Of a DNA stretch of 64,000 nucleotides, positions 6,322 to 44,394 are shown piece after piece (the stretch's first letter is position 1; each line of letters opens with the position of its first letter). The position numbers and the translations under genes are program-made. The notes under the pieces are model-generated. The model ran no database searches. It saw nothing but the letters and a program-made list of their open reading frames with translations, and was not told the DNA's origin. The DNA comes from Ignavibacteriota bacterium (GTDB lineage Bacteria > Bacteroidota > Ignavibacteria > Palsa-1295): the NCBI GenBank assembly GCA_963787835.1, contig CAWBEI010000003.1:128001-192000 (forward strand), read 5' to 3'.

Positions 6322-7413
6322 TCATTGGGATGATTTAATTTGGAATTTGCCCGAAGAGCTCATTCCTTCCGAAGAAACTCTAATGATGTAATTCCCATCC
6401 TTAAATCCAGCTGTGGGGACATCAAAAGCATTAATACCTGTTGAAATATCAACTTGCTTAGAGTATATTTCCCTACCAACAACATCAAATATTTGAATTA
6501 GACCAGCATCGGTAAAATTCGATGAAAAGGTCAAAGAAAGGCCACCTGTTATTTGTGTCATTGTCTTAAGACTTAGTGTACTCCCGTTTATGGGATTGCT
6601 AGAAGGATTCCCGACTTTTTTCAAGCCTGGATCATAAGGATAACCCTCCTGATAAGTAAAGATACCAACGAAATCTGGCTGAAATGTTGACGCATTATTA
6701 TTTGGGTTAATCCCGGTTTGCCCAGTATAGGTAGGATTTGAGCCTGACGGGAGACTATTCACTACTCGAATTGCGAGATAGACACTCTGACCTGTTCGGG
6801 GTGTTGGAACATCTGGAGTTATTAATGCAAGGCTATATGAAGGCGGATAATTCTGATAACGAAGTTGACTCGATGAATTCAAGTAGCACTTTGTGGTATC
6901 GCTAGACCATATAACCGAATCTGAGGCAACGAGTCTTAGTTCTGTAATAAATAGCACAGACGAAGTTGAGGAAAACACTGCCGACGATGGCGTGGCATTG
7001 AAACCCGCATAAGCACTTCGCCAAACTGAATCTCCTAATTGCAAAGTTGTTTGCGCTTGAGCAAGACCCCGTGTGGTTGTCATTTTAGAATAATTGTCAT
7101 AATTGACGAATCTACTAGCCCATATCGTATCATCGGTTCCAGATAAAGTAAATGGCTCAGTTTTTAGATAGTTGTTAGGAAATGCTCCTGAAGTATCCAT
7201 AGAGTAAGCAAGGAAGCTACGTGTTCCACCTTGGCTCCAAATAACTGGGCCATGAATATACTTAATAATTGTTCCGTCTGAGAATGTGTACCACATCTGC
7301 CTTACCTGGCTTGTGTCCGAGGAATTTGCACAGCAAATTGAGTTATCAAAGGCAATAATGTTTATGATGCAAGTGACAATTAGAAGAACATCTCGGCTGA
7401 TTCTTGATAGCAT
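6322..7413 (-). CDS. Secreted protein with T9SS C-terminal sorting domain
   Basis: Signal peptide; C-terminal IQIFDVVGREI...GNYIIRV...KFQIK. Confidence 0.8.
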   Translation of the reverse strand: MLSRISRDVLLIVTCIINIIAFDNSICCANSSDTSQVRQMWYTFSDGTIIKYIHGPVIWSQGGTRSFLAYSMDTSGAFPNNYLKTEPFTLSGTDDTIWASRFVNYDNYSKMTTTRGLAQAQTTLQLGDSVWRSAYAGFNATPSSAVFSSTSSVLFITELRLVASDSVIWSSDTTKCYLNSSSQLRYQNYPPSYSLALITPDVPTPRTGQSVYLAIRVVNSLPSGSNPTYTGQTGINPNNNASTFQPDFVGIFTYQEGYPYDPGLKKVGNPSSNPINGSTLSLKTMTQITGGLSLTFSSNFTDAGLIQIFDVVGREIYSKQVDISTGINAFDVPTAGFKDGNYIIRVSSEGMSSSGKFQIKSSQ

Positions 7414-7509: not shown

Positions 7510-8067
7510 CTAAGAATTATTTTTATCCCGTTTGGCATTATTCTTGCTGGGGGGGGGTATAATTCCCAATCTCATAGCAGTCTCTCTTGCTTTTTTCTTG
7601 GCGTTCTCATATCTGTCATAAATCGCTTTTCGAGGTTTATCCTCGGTTCTAGCAATTTCATCGAATGTTTGTCCCTCATAATCAATAGATTTGATTATCT
7701 CCGAATATCTTTTGTGGATCTTCGCAAAAATTCGTTCGATAGCTTCCGCTGCTTCATAGCTCTCCGTTGCTCTATCGGGTTCCGCAGGTTCCACCACAAG
7801 ATCATCGAGATGTGTCACCCTGCTCTGCTTCCTGCGTTCTCGCTGGTAAAGTCGCTCAGCAGTCGAAAGAAGCCATGAAAATGGTTTTTCAGGTTTGCGA
7901 ATATTAAGAATTCTCTCACGATCTGAAAACTCAATTTGTGCGCCTTGCGTGGCATCTTCTATTGATGAAGGATCGGCATTAAAGTGTCTTTTTTGAAGTG
8001 CGCGAACAACACTTGGCCCTTTTGCCACCGCATTTGCGACAAGATTATTATACTCAGCCTCGGACAT
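7510..8067 (-). CDS. Divergent ECF-type sigma-70 factor
   Basis: Region-2-like IEDATQ...FSWLLSTAERLYQRERRK and region-4-like YEGQTFDEIA HTH. Confidence 0.7.
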   Translation of the reverse strand: MSEAEYNNLVANAVAKGPSVVRALQKRHFNADPSSIEDATQGAQIEFSDRERILNIRKPEKPFSWLLSTAERLYQRERRKQSRVTHLDDLVVEPAEPDRATESYEAAEAIERIFAKIHKRYSEIIKSIDYEGQTFDEIARTEDKPRKAIYDRYENAKKKARETAMRLGIIPPPSKNNAKRDKNNS

Positions 8068-8255: not shown

Positions 8256-8278
8256 GGACGTGCGCAGCACGTCCCTAC
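8256..8278 (-). repeat. GTAG-type REP-like hairpin
   Basis: Reverse strand gtag-ggacgtgc-tgc-gcacgtcc. Confidence 0.7.
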
Positions 8279-8314
8279 GGTTGTCGAATTTTCAAAAAAT
8301 AATTTCGGATATCC

Positions 8315-8343
8315 TTGCTTTTGGGTTTTGGGTGTCGTATATT
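8315..8343 (+). promoter_or_regulatory. Putative sigma70-type promoter driving the repeated element
   Basis: TTGCTT-17 bp-TATATT; the TGTCGTATATTAGG part is conserved in copy 2. Confidence 0.5.
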
Positions 8344-8562
8344 AGGTGGTGAGATGATAGGCACCTATATCAATTTTCAATTAAGAATTGAGAATTAAGA
8401 ATAGGGGCTTTAAGAGTTCATTGACAATCATTCGCTTGGCTTTCGTTATGAACGAGTTCTTCGTGAAAGCAAATTATCCACATTTGCCGGAGCAAGTGGC
8501 GAAATTAGCTCGGAATCGAGGGTGGGTCGGGAAATCACAAGAAAAAGAAATGGCACCTATTT
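8333..8562 (+). other. Dispersed non-coding element, copy 1 (candidate structured ncRNA or MITE)
   Basis: Homologous to the reverse complement of 43544-43760; internal hairpin and terminal ggcacctat repeats. Confidence 0.75.
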
Positions 8563-8659
8563 CTTGGAGACATTGCAAACCATGACGCTCAACTTCACGG
8601 CATATTATTGGGCTTCTCCCACTCCACATGCTATCATATCGTAATTTTGCGATACATTC

Positions 8660-9367
8660 ATGCCACGCCCCGATTTCCATATCGAACATCTCAGCAAGAC
8701 GTACCAGATGGGCGAAGTGCTCGTCACGGCGCTGAAGGATGTTACGTTCGATCTGAAAGCGGGCGAACTCGTCGTTATTCTTGGCGCAAGCGGCAGCGGG
8801 AAATCCACGCTTCTCAACATTATCGGAGGGCTTGACACGCCTACCACCGGGTCTGTCAAGTATGGCGATCTTTCACTCACCACCGCTGTGGATAAAACGC
8901 TGACTATGTTCCGCCGTGCGCATATCGGGTTTGTGTTTCAGTTCTATAATCTGATTCCCAGCCTGACTGCGCTCGAAAACGTCCAGCTTGTAACGGATAT
9001 TGCGGCGAATCCCATGTCTGCCGAAGAAGCACTCAAGCGTGTTGGCCTGAGCGACAGGCTCTATCACTTCCCAGCCCAGCTTTCGGGCGGCGAACAGCAG
9101 CGCATAGCTATCGCGCGCGCCATCGCAAAACGTCCGGACATTCTGCTCTGCGATGAACCCACCGGCGCACTCGATTACACCACCGGCATCACCGTTCTGG
9201 AAACACTGGAACAAGTTCACAAGGAACTCGGAACGACAACGGTGATCATCACGCACAATTCCGCCATTGCGGAAATGGCGGACCGGGTGATCCACATGAG
9301 CAGCGGAGAAATTCTCGAGATAAAAGAGAACGCATCACGCGTATCACCCTCCGAGCTTCGCTGGTAA
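8660..9367 (+). CDS. ABC transporter ATP-binding protein (LolD/MacB type)
   Basis: [28 protein letters not shown]; TAATTTTG -7 motif just upstream. Confidence 0.95.
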
Positions 9368-9383
9368 ATATGAATGTATAGAA

Positions 9384-11750
9384 ATGCAGGCACTTCACCA
9401 CAAGCTTCTTCGCGACATCCTGCATTTGCGCGGTCAGGTAATGGCGGTTGCGGCAGTTGTCGCATGTGGAATTGCGGTGTTCGTACTCATGCGCAGCATG
9501 TTTGAAAGCCTCGAATACGAACAAAGCCATTTCTATGAAGAATACAATTTTGCCGATGTCTTTGCTTCGCTGAAAGAAGCGCCGCAATATGTGTCTGACC
9601 GGATTTCGGAGATCCCCGGAGTAAGTTCCGTTACCACGCGGCTTGTGTTCACCGTAACACTAAATGTTCCGGGACTCGATGAAGCCGCAACCGGACGTTT
9701 TGTCTCGCTTCCATTCTATGGCAAACCTACAATGAATGGCATTTTCCTTCGCGAAGGCCGTTTTCCGGAACCCTCCCGCGACGATGAAGCCATTGCAAAC
9801 GAGACGTTTATGAACGCAAACAAGCTGCATCTCGGCGATTCTGTTAGCGCAGTATTGAACGGCCGGTTGCAGGCATTTCGTATCGTGGGTGTTGGGCTTT
9901 CACCGGAATTTGTCTATGCCGTGAGCGGTGGAACTTCCATCTTCCCGGACGATAAACATTTTGGCGTATTCTGGGTCTCGCGAAAAGCGCTCGAACATGC
10001 CTTCGATATTACCGGCTCGTTCAACGATGTTACATTGCATCTTAGCCGCACCGCGAACAAGGCGGACGTCATTGCCGCGCTTGATCTTCTGCTTCGTCCG
10101 TATGGGAGTATTGGCTCGTATGACAGAACTCAGCAAATATCCCACCAATTCCTTCAGGCCAAGATCGATCAGTATAAATCCATGAGCGATTCGCTCCCGA
10201 TCTTGTTTCTCGCGGTTGCGGCGTTCTTAATTCACATTATCCTCACTCGACTGATAGCAACGGAACGCGAGCAGATCGCAGTGTTGAAAGCATTTGGCTA
10301 CACAAGCACACGCATTGCTATACATTACCTTGAATTTGCAATGGTTACCGTTCTCATCGGCGCATTCGCCGGAATTGTGCTTGGTGTTTGGGGTGGAAGT
10401 GGCGTGCTCGGTCTGCTCCTGAAATACTTCCATTTCCCGACACTGATATTCCATCTCGATGTTTCAACCTTTTTCTTTTCCTTTGGGGTGACGGCGATCG
10501 CGTCGCTCTTGGGCGCTCTTAATTCTGTTCGTGCAGCCGTGAAATTGCCGCCTGCGGAAGCAATGCGTCCCGAAGCCCCTGCACTATTCAAGCAGGGATT
10601 TTTCGAACACCTTGGTGTCCAGCGTATTCTCTCAACAAGCGGCAGAATGGCGCTAAGGGATTTCGAACGAAAACCCATAAAATCTCTGCTCTCGATGGTA
10701 ACCATCGCCTTTGCGGTCGCATTGCTTATCGCGGGTGGTGAAATGAATGATTCGATCCGCGATATCGTGACCATCGAGTTTTTTAGCGCCCGGCATGACG
10801 ATCTTTCCGTCGGGTTTCGGGTTCCGAGGCCAGAAGATGCCCGGTACGACCTTTCCAGGATGCCGGGTGTGCTTCGTGTGGAGGGTTCCCGAACCGTCCC
10901 TGTGGATCTCTCGCTCGGTTCTCGAAAAAAAAGGCTTGCTATCCAGGGACTTGATCGTATGGGAACCCTGCGACAGCTTGTCGATGCTAAACGAAGGATC
11001 CATGCGATTCCCCTTCGCGGTCTCGCGCTCACCTCCTATCTTGCACACGAATTGCATGCAAACGTCGGCGACACACTGCGAGTCGAAGTGCTCGAAGGCC
11101 ATCAGCGAACCACGCAGATGATCGTCGAAGACACGATTGACGAACTCCTTGGCATCTCTGCCTATATGGACATTGCGAATATCGGCCTGTTAACGGGTGA
11201 AGACCAGGATTATTCGGAAGCCCAGCTAACGATCGACCCCAGATCCGGCCCGGCAATTCAGCACGCGCTCGAAAATATGCCGCTCGTGACCGGAGTCTCA
11301 CTCCGCACCGGAATGATCGACGATTATCAGAAAACGCTTGCGGATAGTATGCTTACCCTCAACCTTGTCTTCATCCTGTTTGCGAGCGTCCTTGCGTTTG
11401 GGGTTGTCTATAATAGTGGGCGCATCACGCTGAGCGAGCGCGGGCGGGAATTTGCAAGCTTGCGCGTGCTCGGGTTCACAAAGCGCGAAGTAGCCATGAT
11501 CATGATCGGGCAGCAGACCGCGATCGTCCTGCTCGGAATGCCGCTCGGCTTCGCGATCGGGTACCTTCTCAACAAAGGGCTCGGCGGAGCGTATGCGTCC
11601 GAACTCTTTCGCCTGCCATTCGAATTCTCCTCGCAATCGCTCGGTTATGCCGCGATCGTTGTTCTTGCTGCAGGTATCGTATCGAATATTTTTATTATCC
11701 GAAGAATTTATCAGCTCGATATCATTGAAGTACTAAAGACCCGCGAGTAA
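9384..11750 (+). CDS. ABC transporter permease (duplicated MacB/FtsX domains)
   Basis: Two EREQIAVLKAFGY / ERGREFASLRVLGF motifs and many TM segments. Confidence 0.93.
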   Translation: MQALHHKLLRDILHLRGQVMAVAAVVACGIAVFVLMRSMFESLEYEQSHFYEEYNFADVFASLKEAPQYVSDRISEIPGVSSVTTRLVFTVTLNVPGLDEAATGRFVSLPFYGKPTMNGIFLREGRFPEPSRDDEAIANETFMNANKLHLGDSVSAVLNGRLQAFRIVGVGLSPEFVYAVSGGTSIFPDDKHFGVFWVSRKALEHAFDITGSFNDVTLHLSRTANKADVIAALDLLLRPYGSIGSYDRTQQISHQFLQAKIDQYKSMSDSLPILFLAVAAFLIHIILTRLIATEREQIAVLKAFGYTSTRIAIHYLEFAMVTVLIGAFAGIVLGVWGGSGVLGLLLKYFHFPTLIFHLDVSTFFFSFGVTAIASLLGALNSVRAAVKLPPAEAMRPEAPALFKQGFFEHLGVQRILSTSGRMALRDFERKPIKSLLSMVTIAFAVALLIAGGEMNDSIRDIVTIEFFSARHDDLSVGFRVPRPEDARYDLSRMPGVLRVEGSRTVPVDLSLGSRKKRLAIQGLDRMGTLRQLVDAKRRIHAIPLRGLALTSYLAHELHANVGDTLRVEVLEGHQRTTQMIVEDTIDELLGISAYMDIANIGLLTGEDQDYSEAQLTIDPRSGPAIQHALENMPLVTGVSLRTGMIDDYQKTLADSMLTLNLVFILFASVLAFGVVYNSGRITLSERGREFASLRVLGFTKREVAMIMIGQQTAIVLLGMPLGFAIGYLLNKGLGGAYASELFRLPFEFSSQSLGYAAIVVLAAGIVSNIFIIRRIYQLDIIEVLKTRE

Positions 11751-41648: not shown

Positions 41649-43412
41649 TTAATACACTCTCTTCTTCGGCTGGTATTTCGTGATCGCGACAGGGCGGTAT
41701 TCCAGCTTCGGTTTACCTTCACCGCTCTTGTATGCGAAGGTATGCTTCAGCCAGTTGTGATCATCGCGGTCGGGGAAATCTTCGCGGGAATGTCCGCCAC
41801 GTGATTCGGTGCGATTCAGTGCGCATTCCAGTGTCACATGCGCCGTATCCAGCAGGTTCCCGAGTTCGATGGCTTCCAGAAGATCGGTATTGAACTGACT
41901 TCCCTTGTCATCGATCACCACTGTTTTGTATTTTTCTCGAAGCTCTCCAATTCTATCGAGCGCCGATTGAAGTCCTTTGGCATCGCGAAAGATTCCGCAA
42001 TCATCCATCATCATTTGCTGCAATTCGGTGCGGAGCGGAGCCGGTTTGTTGCCCGAAGTTCTCGATTTGATCTCTTCAATTTTCGCTTTCGTTGTTTCGC
42101 CAGCATTTGAAAGCAGAGTAGGATATTCCGCTCCTGATTTGAGATATTCCGCAATTGCCTTACCGCCTCTACGGCCAAATACAATAAGATCGAGCAACGA
42201 ATTTGTCCCTAACCGATTCGCGCCATGAACGCTGACGCAGGCGCATTCCCCTGCCGCATAAAATCCCTGCACAATGCCATCCTTATGGTCGAGCCGTACA
42301 CGGCCATCGACATCCGTGGGAATGCCTCCCATCACATAATGCGCGGTCGGCTGGATCGGTACCCCTTCTTTCGTTGGCTCGACTCCAAGGTACGTTCTCG
42401 CAAAGCCAACGATCTCCGGAATTTTTTCCGTGATGATCTTAATATCGAGATGCGTCAGATCAAGCAGAATGTAATCCGTACCATCGGAGCCTCGAATGCC
42501 TCGGCCTTCGCGAATTTCCTGAATGATGGCTCGCGAGACCATATCGCGTGGTGCAAGATCCTTCACCGTTGGCGCATAACGTTCCATGAACCGCTCGCCA
42601 TCCTTATTGCGAAGAATTCCGCCTTCGCCGCGAGCCGCTTCCGATACTAAAATTCCGAGTTTCCAAAGTCCCGTCGGATGGAACTGCATGAATTCCATAT
42701 CTTCGAGCGGAAGTCCGGCATTATAGGCCAGCATAAATCCATCGCCGGTTCCCACGTGGGCATTCGAAGTGATGCGCCAAATTCTGCCATCACCACCGGT
42801 CGCGAACATCACGGCTTTCGCATGAAAGACGTGAACTTCGCCCGTCAAAATCTCTATCGCGACGACTCCGCTTGCCACGCCATTCTCGTAGAGAAGTTCC
42901 GTTACGAAAAACTCGCTGAAGAACCGCACATTATTCTTCAATGAATTTTCATAGAGCGTATGCAGCATCGTATGACCCGTGCGGTCAGCCGAATAGCACG
43001 AGCGCATCACCGCGACGCGCTTCGAATCCGGATCGCTCGGATCGACGGGCCGCGTATGACCGCCAAACCGGCGCTGGGCGATCTTGCCCTCATCGGTTCG
43101 CGAAAAAGGCATGCCCATGTGCTCTAACTCGACGACCGCCCTCGGCGCATCGTTGCACATCACCTCGATCGCGTCCTGATCGCCGAGGTAATCCGAGCCC
43201 TTCACGGTATCGTACGCATGCCAGTCCGGATGATCTTCTTCCAGATTGCCCAGCGCGGCGCATACCCCGCCTTGCGCTGCGCCCGTATGCGAGCGAAGCG
43301 GATGAACTTTGGTGAGCACGGCGCAGGTATAGCCGGCCGGAATTTCCACGGCCGCGCGAAGCCCTGCTCCGCCCGCGCCTACGATTATTACGTCAAATTG
43401 ATGTGTCGTCAT
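41649..43412 (-). CDS. sdhA: Succinate dehydrogenase flavoprotein subunit
   Basis: GAGGAG, RSHTGAAQGG, QFHPTG, SEAARGEGG, HGANRLGTNSLLD, ESRGGHSRED. Confidence 0.96.
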   Translation of the reverse strand: MTTHQFDVIIVGAGGAGLRAAVEIPAGYTCAVLTKVHPLRSHTGAAQGGVCAALGNLEEDHPDWHAYDTVKGSDYLGDQDAIEVMCNDAPRAVVELEHMGMPFSRTDEGKIAQRRFGGHTRPVDPSDPDSKRVAVMRSCYSADRTGHTMLHTLYENSLKNNVRFFSEFFVTELLYENGVASGVVAIEILTGEVHVFHAKAVMFATGGDGRIWRITSNAHVGTGDGFMLAYNAGLPLEDMEFMQFHPTGLWKLGILVSEAARGEGGILRNKDGERFMERYAPTVKDLAPRDMVSRAIIQEIREGRGIRGSDGTDYILLDLTHLDIKIITEKIPEIVGFARTYLGVEPTKEGVPIQPTAHYVMGGIPTDVDGRVRLDHKDGIVQGFYAAGECACVSVHGANRLGTNSLLDLIVFGRRGGKAIAEYLKSGAEYPTLLSNAGETTKAKIEEIKSRTSGNKPAPLRTELQQMMMDDCGIFRDAKGLQSALDRIGELREKYKTVVIDDKGSQFNTDLLEAIELGNLLDTAHVTLECALNRTESRGGHSREDFPDRDDHNWLKHTFAYKSGEGKPKLEYRPVAITKYQPKKRVY

Positions 43413-43543
43413 GTGTTATGGAGGTCTTCAACATTAGGGAGGAGTATTTAATCCACCACAAAAATACGGAATTGTAAGCCACTTCTCCCGGACATTGCTT
43501 TCACGAAAAGAAGATGAATTACCATCAACTAGTTTTCTATAAA

Positions 43544-43760
43544 AAATAGGTGCCATTTTTCTTTTTTGTGAGTTCCCGACGACCCTCGAATTTGAGCCAA
43601 TTTCTCCATTTGTTTCAACAAATTCTTTCTCAAAGAACTGGTTCATTACGAAATCTATGCCGTTGATTTTCAAAGAGCAAATGAGCACCTATTCTTAATT
43701 CTCAATTCGTAATTGAAAATTGATATAGGTGCCTATCATAGCACAACCTAATATACGACA
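43544..43760 (-). other. Dispersed non-coding element, copy 2
   Basis: Reverse complement homologous to 8333-8562. Confidence 0.75.
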
Positions 43761-43801
43761 TAAATTGCGACGGTGTTTAAAAAACAAAAATCCAGATCTG
43801 C

Positions 43802-43826
43802 GTAGGTCGGTGCTTCCAGCCCGACC
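43802..43826 (+). repeat. GTAG-type REP-like hairpin
   Basis: gtaggtcggtgct-tcc-agcccgacc. Confidence 0.6.
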
Positions 43827-43842
43827 CCCAAGTGGCGGAGCC

Positions 43843-44044
43843 ACGAAGTACTCGCAGCCCAGGGTGCAACGAAGTGGAACCCTGGGTTAACAAGCAAGCA
43901 TTTATTTATAGCCCTGAAAGGGCGATGTTCACTGTCGGAGATTACTCCGTCCTTTCAGGACTCTGGGATCTAAAACGAACGCAACCCCAGCATTCCGCTA
44001 CGCCGCAAGCGGCTTCGCTCCATGCTGGGCTGCGAGTACTTCGT
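43843..44044. mobile_element. MITE-like palindromic element
   Basis: Perfect 20-bp terminal inverted repeats acgaagtactcgcagcccag / ctgggctgcgagtacttcgt; internal cctgaaagg/cctttcagg and cccaggg/ccctggg stems. Confidence 0.7.
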
Positions 44045-44139: not shown

Positions 44140-44394
44140 ATGCGTCCCCGCCCATACCTGTTCGCGATCCTCTTAATCCTCATTGCCTTCTCATCACCAT
44201 CCCACGCCCAGGGCAAACCCACCGACACCACTAAAATAGAAAAGACGACCGATTCAACCGTCTATGTCACAAACAGCGGCAAAAAATACCATCGCGCCGG
44301 ATGCATCTACCTCGGCAAAAGCTCCATCCCCATTAAACTCTCCGACGCAAAAAAATACTACCAACCCTGCAAACGCTGCAAGCCGGTGGAGTGA
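44140..44394 (+). CDS. Small secreted protein with Ada-metal-binding-like motif
   Basis: Signal peptide; VYVTNSGKKYHRAGC...PCKRC. Confidence 0.75.
   Translation: MRPRPYLFAILLILIAFSSPSHAQGKPTDTTKIEKTTDSTVYVTNSGKKYHRAGCIYLGKSSIPIKLSDAKKYYQPCKRCKPVE

Follow-up and report, generated by a model that had tools for sequence, protein, structure and literature searches.

Dispersed gene-less repeats with a predicted SOS promoter and the 3′ flank of a RecA/DnaB-fold gene in an uncultured Kapabacteria bacterium

The window, meaning the whole stretch of 64,000 nucleotides that was analysed, lies in the 3.57-Mb genome of an uncultured Kapabacteria bacterium (G000; its relatives are numbered G001 onwards) and contains two copies of an intergenic element, one followed by an ABC ATPase gene and the other by sdhA. 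The two copies, already described as homologous in the earlier note, aligned with 77.7% identity over 233 nt (copy 1 at 8333-8565, plus strand; copy 2 at 43541-43760, minus strand; E 1.7e-47), and all six conserved blocks listed in that note fell within the alignment. The element was composed, in order, of a promoter and a palindrome (together the head), a variable filler carrying a boxA-like motif, then the conserved core, and finally a single half-site. The features of the window are as follows, X being the gene discussed below.

8256-8279, minus strand: GTAG-type REP hairpin, neighbour of copy 1, with many copies in the genome and not found with every copy of the element
8315-8343, plus strand: sigma70-like promoter of copy 1 (-35 TTGCTT, 17 nt, -10 TATATT), with the layout of the lexA promoter
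8348-8365, plus strand: predicted LexA box of copy 1 (operator A), left arm with 2 mismatches
8366-8408, plus strand: variable module of copy 1, an AATT heptamer run and an imperfect inverted half-site (8401-8408)
8416-8427, plus strand: boxA-like antitermination motif of copy 1, similar to a motif of the rRNA leader
8440-8549, plus strand: conserved core 1 of copy 1; its homologue is the 3′ flank of gene X-a at L192, which is not in the window
8550-8563, plus strand: distal half-site B of copy 1
8660-9367, plus strand: ABC ATPase gene 3′ of copy 1, preceded by a promoter-like motif of its own and possibly reached by read-through
41649-43412, minus strand: sdhA, 3′ of copy 2
43542-43653, minus strand: core 1 and distal half-site B (43556-43542) of copy 2
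43667-43727, minus strand: heptamer run, inverted half-site (43692-43683) and boxA-like motif (43678-43667) of copy 2
43728-43745, minus strand: predicted LexA box of copy 2, which scores 18.7 bits and ranks in the genome's top six sites
43750-43779, minus strand: promoter of copy 2, -10 TATATT at 43755-43750

The promoter proposed for copy 1 was found with TTGCTT at 8315, TATATT at 8338 and 17 nt between them; a generic promoter scanner omitted it because its -35 matches at 3 of 6 positions only. The GTAG hairpin reported upstream of copy 1 was present at 8256-8279, and so was the TAATTTTG motif ahead of the downstream ABC gene, whose orthologue in G002 had no element directly 5′ of it. Divergent from copy 1 were accessory genes on the minus strand (7510-8067 and 6322-7413) with sub-threshold Sigma70_r4_2 and Por secretion tail matches, and G002 carries other DNA in their place. 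A large REPIN-like inverted-repeat structure with many relatives in the genome was seen upstream of copy 2 (43800-44040), as well as a small, divergent Cys/His-rich ORF (44140-44394, plus strand) with a signal-like start and no Pfam match, which was also present at the same site in G002 and G014.

The claim of two copies was an understatement, as 54 core-1 copies were counted in the genome (70 when sister cores were included). An nhmmer model gave 83 hits on G000, 54 of which exceeded 80 bits and extended to the 3′ end, and the tail motif was likewise counted 54 times. The head was retained by 53 of the 54 cores, with the -10 intact in 52, and these 52 cores were 62-96% identical (median 76%), core length being 100-124 bp. 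An AT-rich tract lay upstream in every copy; the -10 was TATATT in 49 of 52 copies and TAGATT in the other 3, and a canonical -35 at 17 nt was present in 22 of the 52. RRGCACC was located 14-15 nt 3′ of the -10, and a second GGCACC past the core. The apparent ends of the element are direct half-sites, and 18 of 52 copies also contain an inverted one internally. GCACCTAT and ATAGGTGC represent a single operator half-site read in either orientation, a relation missed in the earlier note. The variable module consisted of heptamer runs of several kinds, and one insert had a constant length with 16 different sequences among 18 copies. Sister elements had the common head and different cores, a core being present behind 70 heads (the lexA leader among them), and some elements were tandem, with cores 2 and 1 in this order behind one head and a half-site after each. 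Abundant long matches were found in 4 of 14 same-genus genomes (G002, G006, G009, and G014) and short matches only in the remainder of the 40 relatives; homologues of the element-linked protein were labelled Candidatus Kapabacteria or Bacteroidota. No repeat of this type was found in searches of the openly accessible literature.

The palindrome, GTGCY-N6-RGCAC, was perfect in 16 of 16 recA upstream regions of the family and was present with at most one mismatch upstream of lexA in 25 of 25 (lexA identity confirmed by TIGR00498). Upstream of dinB it was found, within the same one-mismatch limit, in 9 of 19 regions, its right arm in 18 of 19 vs 1 of 15 for tpiA; the whole palindrome occurred in 0 of 15 tpiA regions and, outside the family, in 0 of 10 recA and 0 of 5 lexA regions. 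GGCACC as a mere repeat arm was rejected on the recA/dinB vs tpiA contrast. The same head stood directly 5′ of lexA (C6:57598-58272) and two dinB genes in G000 (dinB confirmed), and of other ORFs that we take, from their translations, to be ssb, recQ, and an alkylation-repair gene. The head pattern was counted 81 times in G000, 5-65 times in each of 24 family relatives (the count of G011 not being above its reversed-pattern control) and 0-6 times in 16 other genomes. For the few-head genomes, 38 downstream ORFs (of 39, from 40 loci) were compared with Pfam: 10 matched families of the repair type (IMS, RmuC, radical SAM, methyladenine glycosylase, TfoX, DinB_2, and Cdd1), 13 matched other families, and 15 matched none. 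In the elements, operator A had 0, 1 and 2 mismatches in 3, 16 and 33 copies, respectively (all 52 heads), and site B was a half-site only. LexA autoregulates its own gene, and since the palindrome precedes lexA, we infer LexA to be the likely binder; from these upstream regions the palindrome is likely to be the LexA box of this lineage.

Like known LexA (SOS) operators, the palindrome lies before lexA, recA, dinB, the presumed ssb, and other repair genes and overlaps the transcription start. It differs in its motif, GTGC-N8-GCAC, in belonging with a canonical LexA and not a phage-like repressor, and in that most boxes (about 70 of the 83 promoter-linked boxes of G000) are in gene-less repeats. 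The literature searches, with the scope given above, turned up no SOS motif described in Kapabacteria, Ignavibacteria or Chlorobi; the predicted SOS box of this Kapabacteria family had no forerunner in them. The GTGC-N8-GCAC motif was not found in the published literature searched and is absent from the accessible parts of the lists in PMC8565304 and PMC13148647. In heads of G001, G003, G015, and G020 (L043-L172), additional half-sites were seen repeatedly at constant distances 5′ of the operator, 50-51 bp for direct and 77-79 bp for inverted ones.

The core was traced to the flank of gene X. One core 1 had no head, and its start coincides with the stop codon of X-a, an ORF of 261 aa; the sole headless core 2 follows an X paralogue, and core 3 follows two more; the only gene-preceded copies of cores 1 and 2 were those behind X genes. 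The X-a flank matched 52 of 83 heads in G000, the X flank of G001 matched 15 of 30 heads (in G001 only) and that of G003 matched 11 of 30 (in G003 only), 30 heads being used of the 35-61 of each relative. Out of 12 X flanks tested, 8 matched standalone elements and 4 matched no standalone family, and four control flanks matched no head. The core is the 3′ flank of the RecA/DnaB-fold gene X, and in each of three genomes it is the flank of that genome's own X paralogue that has been amplified. This independent amplification of the flanks of different X paralogues is unexplained by known element classes.

The boxA-like motif, GTTC(A/T)TTGA(A/C)AA, was located 30-94 nt 3′ of the operator in RNA predicted to be untranslated, in 43 of 52 copies and in 0 of 24 X-gene leaders. 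It was similar to the boxA of the genome's own rRNA leader and enriched in untranslated RNA, 49 of the 66 boxA-like matches in the genome being in elements (48 and one with a degenerate -10). Antitermination by boxA and Nus factors acts before rRNA and CRISPR arrays according to the available part of PMC7862264; the elements resemble such sites in the motif and its place in untranslated RNA and differ in having no known long RNA downstream. No intrinsic terminator was found after the element, terminator-like hairpins past B being present in 5 of 52 copies vs 20 of 150 random sequences. On crude ORF calls, 35 of 50 copies pointed into the next gene and 14 were convergent. The downstream genes, which include sdhA, had their own promoters and no obvious repair link; from translations, mdh and several ribosomal-protein genes are presumably also neighbours of elements. 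In G000 (C4:405927-408870), the only 16S gene found has a core-2 element about 950 bp upstream; behind this 16S gene come a hairpin and a protein-like ORF, so that it may be unlinked from 23S.

The distance from operator A to half-site B was 146-240 bp and showed a best period of 11.1-11.2 bp (R 0.64, n=50 with two nested copies left out; R 0.50, p<=0.0005 for the 35 distinct lengths). On a spanning tree, every one of the 15 length steps in the core fell at 10-12 or 22-23 bp; for the variable part, p was 0.007. The phase in G002 (n=20) and G006 (n=11) was that of G000, though these genomes are kin. Neither core 2 (n=16, R 0.27) nor the G003 family (n=12, R 0.07) was phased, and the lengths of G001 elements were mainly two, 140 and 151. 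The position of the boxA-like motif was unphased, as expected of an RNA signal. Repression loops in vivo have about 11 bp per turn, as given in the accessible part of PMC3001091. The spacing steps of about 11 bp point to a phased protein-DNA complex, and the core length steps may trace to few events; such steps among natural copies provide a ready-made operator-spacing experiment. Curved DNA was rejected on the lack of a 10.5-bp AA/TT period.

Upstream of sdhA, the site of copy 2, there was an X gene in G005 and G009, an element with another core in G002 and G014, and the tail only in G006. An IS-like insertion was observed there in G006 (L177), where just the tail half-site remains. The X-b site of G000 (L235) was occupied by an element in G002, and at both sites X gene and element are alleles. 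The downstream gene could be placed for 40 core-bearing elements of G002 and G006; 25 had a headed G000 copy, 9 of them with a different core, and 15 had none. Of 13 orthologous core-1 pairs, 6 were mutual best matches, 1 ranked second and 6 ranked 14-49, and therefore modules have been replaced in place. The DNA upstream of the elements was rarely syntenic, the elements bordering non-syntenic accessory DNA, and for this reason no clean empty site was located. REP-like ends lay upstream of 22 of 52 copies vs 6% of random windows, and a check for linked RAYT genes placed 4 of 9 within 3 kb of an element (1 expected). The suggestion of a non-autonomous element with its own promoter fits the 54 dispersed copies, the conserved -10, and the presence or absence at orthologous sites.

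The repeats were read as gene-less SOS-promoter cassettes. This reading, to which a probability of roughly 55% is given, sees in each copy the promoter and operator of gene X joined to its 3′ flank, filler standing where the gene would be, and has the copy repressed by LexA in a phased complex and upon damage producing boxA-protected read-through into the neighbour; gene X may have been lost from the cassette or captured by it. Speaking against this reading are the unphased core 2 and G003 family, the missing 10.5-bp AA/TT signal, the incomplete site B, the 2 mismatches in 33 of 52 A boxes, the promoters and lack of an obvious repair link of the downstream genes, the 4 of 12 X flanks that matched no standalone family, and the failure to locate a clean empty site. 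LexA, perhaps with another protein, would repress as a phased complex over promoter and core; the promoter would fire upon DNA damage; the boxA-like motif would protect from Rho (PMC7862264) a transcript with no ORF to shield it; and since no terminator follows, the transcript would run into the neighbouring gene. The palindrome before recA, lexA, and dinB, the identity of core and X flank, the presence and absence of elements, the swapping of cores between species, and the 11-bp steps are the observed parts. Ectopic recombination at intergenic hot spots rich in REPs and heptamers may have spread and exchanged the copies, with RAYT transposases as possible helpers. The host would keep them for tying neighbours (mostly housekeeping genes) to SOS and for carrying most promoter-linked LexA boxes; with about 70 of 83 boxes the repeats could also buffer LexA. 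If true, dozens of unrelated loci come under DNA-damage control, and a repeat has apparently expanded a bacterial regulon about six-fold, as transposons do in eukaryotes. It is doubtful that the element goes further and belongs to a new class of SOS-timed mobile cassette, in which the only gene encodes a RecA/DnaB-fold protein without catalytic activity that recognises the 3′ flank of its own gene, and in which each paralogue has seeded a gene-less family, these families now containing most LexA boxes of the genome and rewiring dozens of housekeeping loci.

X had no Pfam or NCBIfam family; its model (pLDDT 82) matched the folds of DnaB, T7 gp4, KaiC, RadA, and RecA (Z 13-14). X was found in 21 of 24 family genomes, often multicopy, and in 0 of 16 others, usually with the operator upstream, and the search gave 28 homologues. 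An unlikely alternative, to which the fold, the phased core, and this distribution lend themselves, is that the element is selfish, non-autonomous and mobilised by X, which would bind its cognate core as a phased complex and copy full and empty cassettes during SOS, promoter and operator only timing mobility. The pairing of X paralogue and amplified core by lineage, and X being alone in preceding cores 1 and 2, also argue for it. However, the P-loop position of X is degenerate, with no GKT and no Walker A motif, a nuclease domain was not found in X, and terminal repeats or duplications were not seen at the elements. Moreover, a-type X was not found in G009 or G014, which are rich in core 1, and X-a of G002 and G006 is followed by a CRISPR array and not by core 1. 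X resembles inactive RecA-fold SOS proteins of the ImuA/SulA type in its RecA-superfamily fold, the lack of a Walker A motif, and its predicted SOS box; it differs in having no Pfam or NCBIfam HMM match, in the number of paralogues (several in a genome, the flank of each one amplified), and in that neither protein was among the listed fold matches.

The novel structured RNA put forward in the earlier note was rejected: RNAalifold found 0 pairs in 52 cores, the top covarying columns gave no helix, and the mean z of single folds was -0.6 (subfamily means -1.5, -1.9, +0.2, and -0.7). The view that no known RNA family is involved was upheld, the Rfam scan giving no match at gathering and, at E<=0.5, only sub-threshold miRNA hairpin matches in the flanks and the AT hairpin. 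As for two alternative folds, the pairings exist in the two window copies, copy 2 folding central-to-3′ (z -3.9) and copy 1 forming the 5′ hairpin (z -0.7), but the central motif that a two-state switch requires was present in just 18 of 52 copies (6 mismatched), and the switch was discarded. A damage-induced non-coding RNA of about 200 nt from many loci (decoy, antitoxin or X partner) is improbable. The conserved promoter and boxA-like motif would suit it, as would the core right behind the X stop codon, a placement known from the RNA partners of certain proteins. Copy 2 also folds better than shuffles, as do the AATT (mean z -1.5) and GTGTC (mean z -1.9) subfamilies. The ATGAA subfamily (z +0.2) does not, and the missing consensus structure, helix-type covariation, terminator, and Rfam match, together with helical-turn indels that are a DNA signature, speak against it. 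A small protein or decayed gene was rejected with a frame open in 25 of 52 copies and length classes in all three frames, and an IscB/TnpB/IS110 guide or bridge RNA was rejected among element-linked genes, the linked gene being X and a structured scaffold lacking.

Least probable is neutral debris, that is, leftover ends of X-gene or accessory-island insertions homogenised by gene conversion, which would agree with the bordering accessory DNA, the paralogous versions at 6 of 13 orthologous cores, the nearby RAYT genes, and a 21-nt lexA-leader block within the coding sequence of a long X gene, but not with heads on 53 of 54 cores and 52 intact -10 sequences at a median identity of 76%, invariant blocks next to free spacers, a boxA-like motif limited to gene-less forms, or the non-conserved frame.

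The gene-less SOS-promoter cassettes resemble Neisseria Correia elements and MITEs in their dozens of dispersed intergenic 150-250 bp copies with an outward promoter, in polymorphic insertion (54 copies, with 15 of 40 orthologous sites lacking a headed copy), and in their relation to a longer gene-bearing unit. They differ in that no terminal inverted repeats or target duplication were seen among sites of which none was cleanly empty, modules are swapped in place, and the cognate gene encodes a RecA-fold protein and not a transposase or recombinase. REP hairpins by 22 of 52 copies, internal heptamer runs, and nearby RAYT genes recall REP/REPIN-RAYT systems and intergenic heptamer repeats, although the element itself is no hairpin repeat and a REP end was undetected in 30 of 52 copies.

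Further observations were made at X loci. A CRISPR-like array (repeats of about 47 bp, 30-bp spacers) stands behind the X-a stop in place of core 1 in G006 (L194) and G002 (L195). Two near-identical X-c genes form an inverted duplication in G000 (L175; C2:4752-5522 and 9784-10470), and X-b and X-c are divergent from BrnT/CopG-type toxin-antitoxin genes (L174 and L175). G020 (L113-L142) contained one more amplified family, with 55 heads and a core of its own; it was not matched by the one G020 X flank tested, and one of its heads lies 5′ of a RAYT-like ORF.
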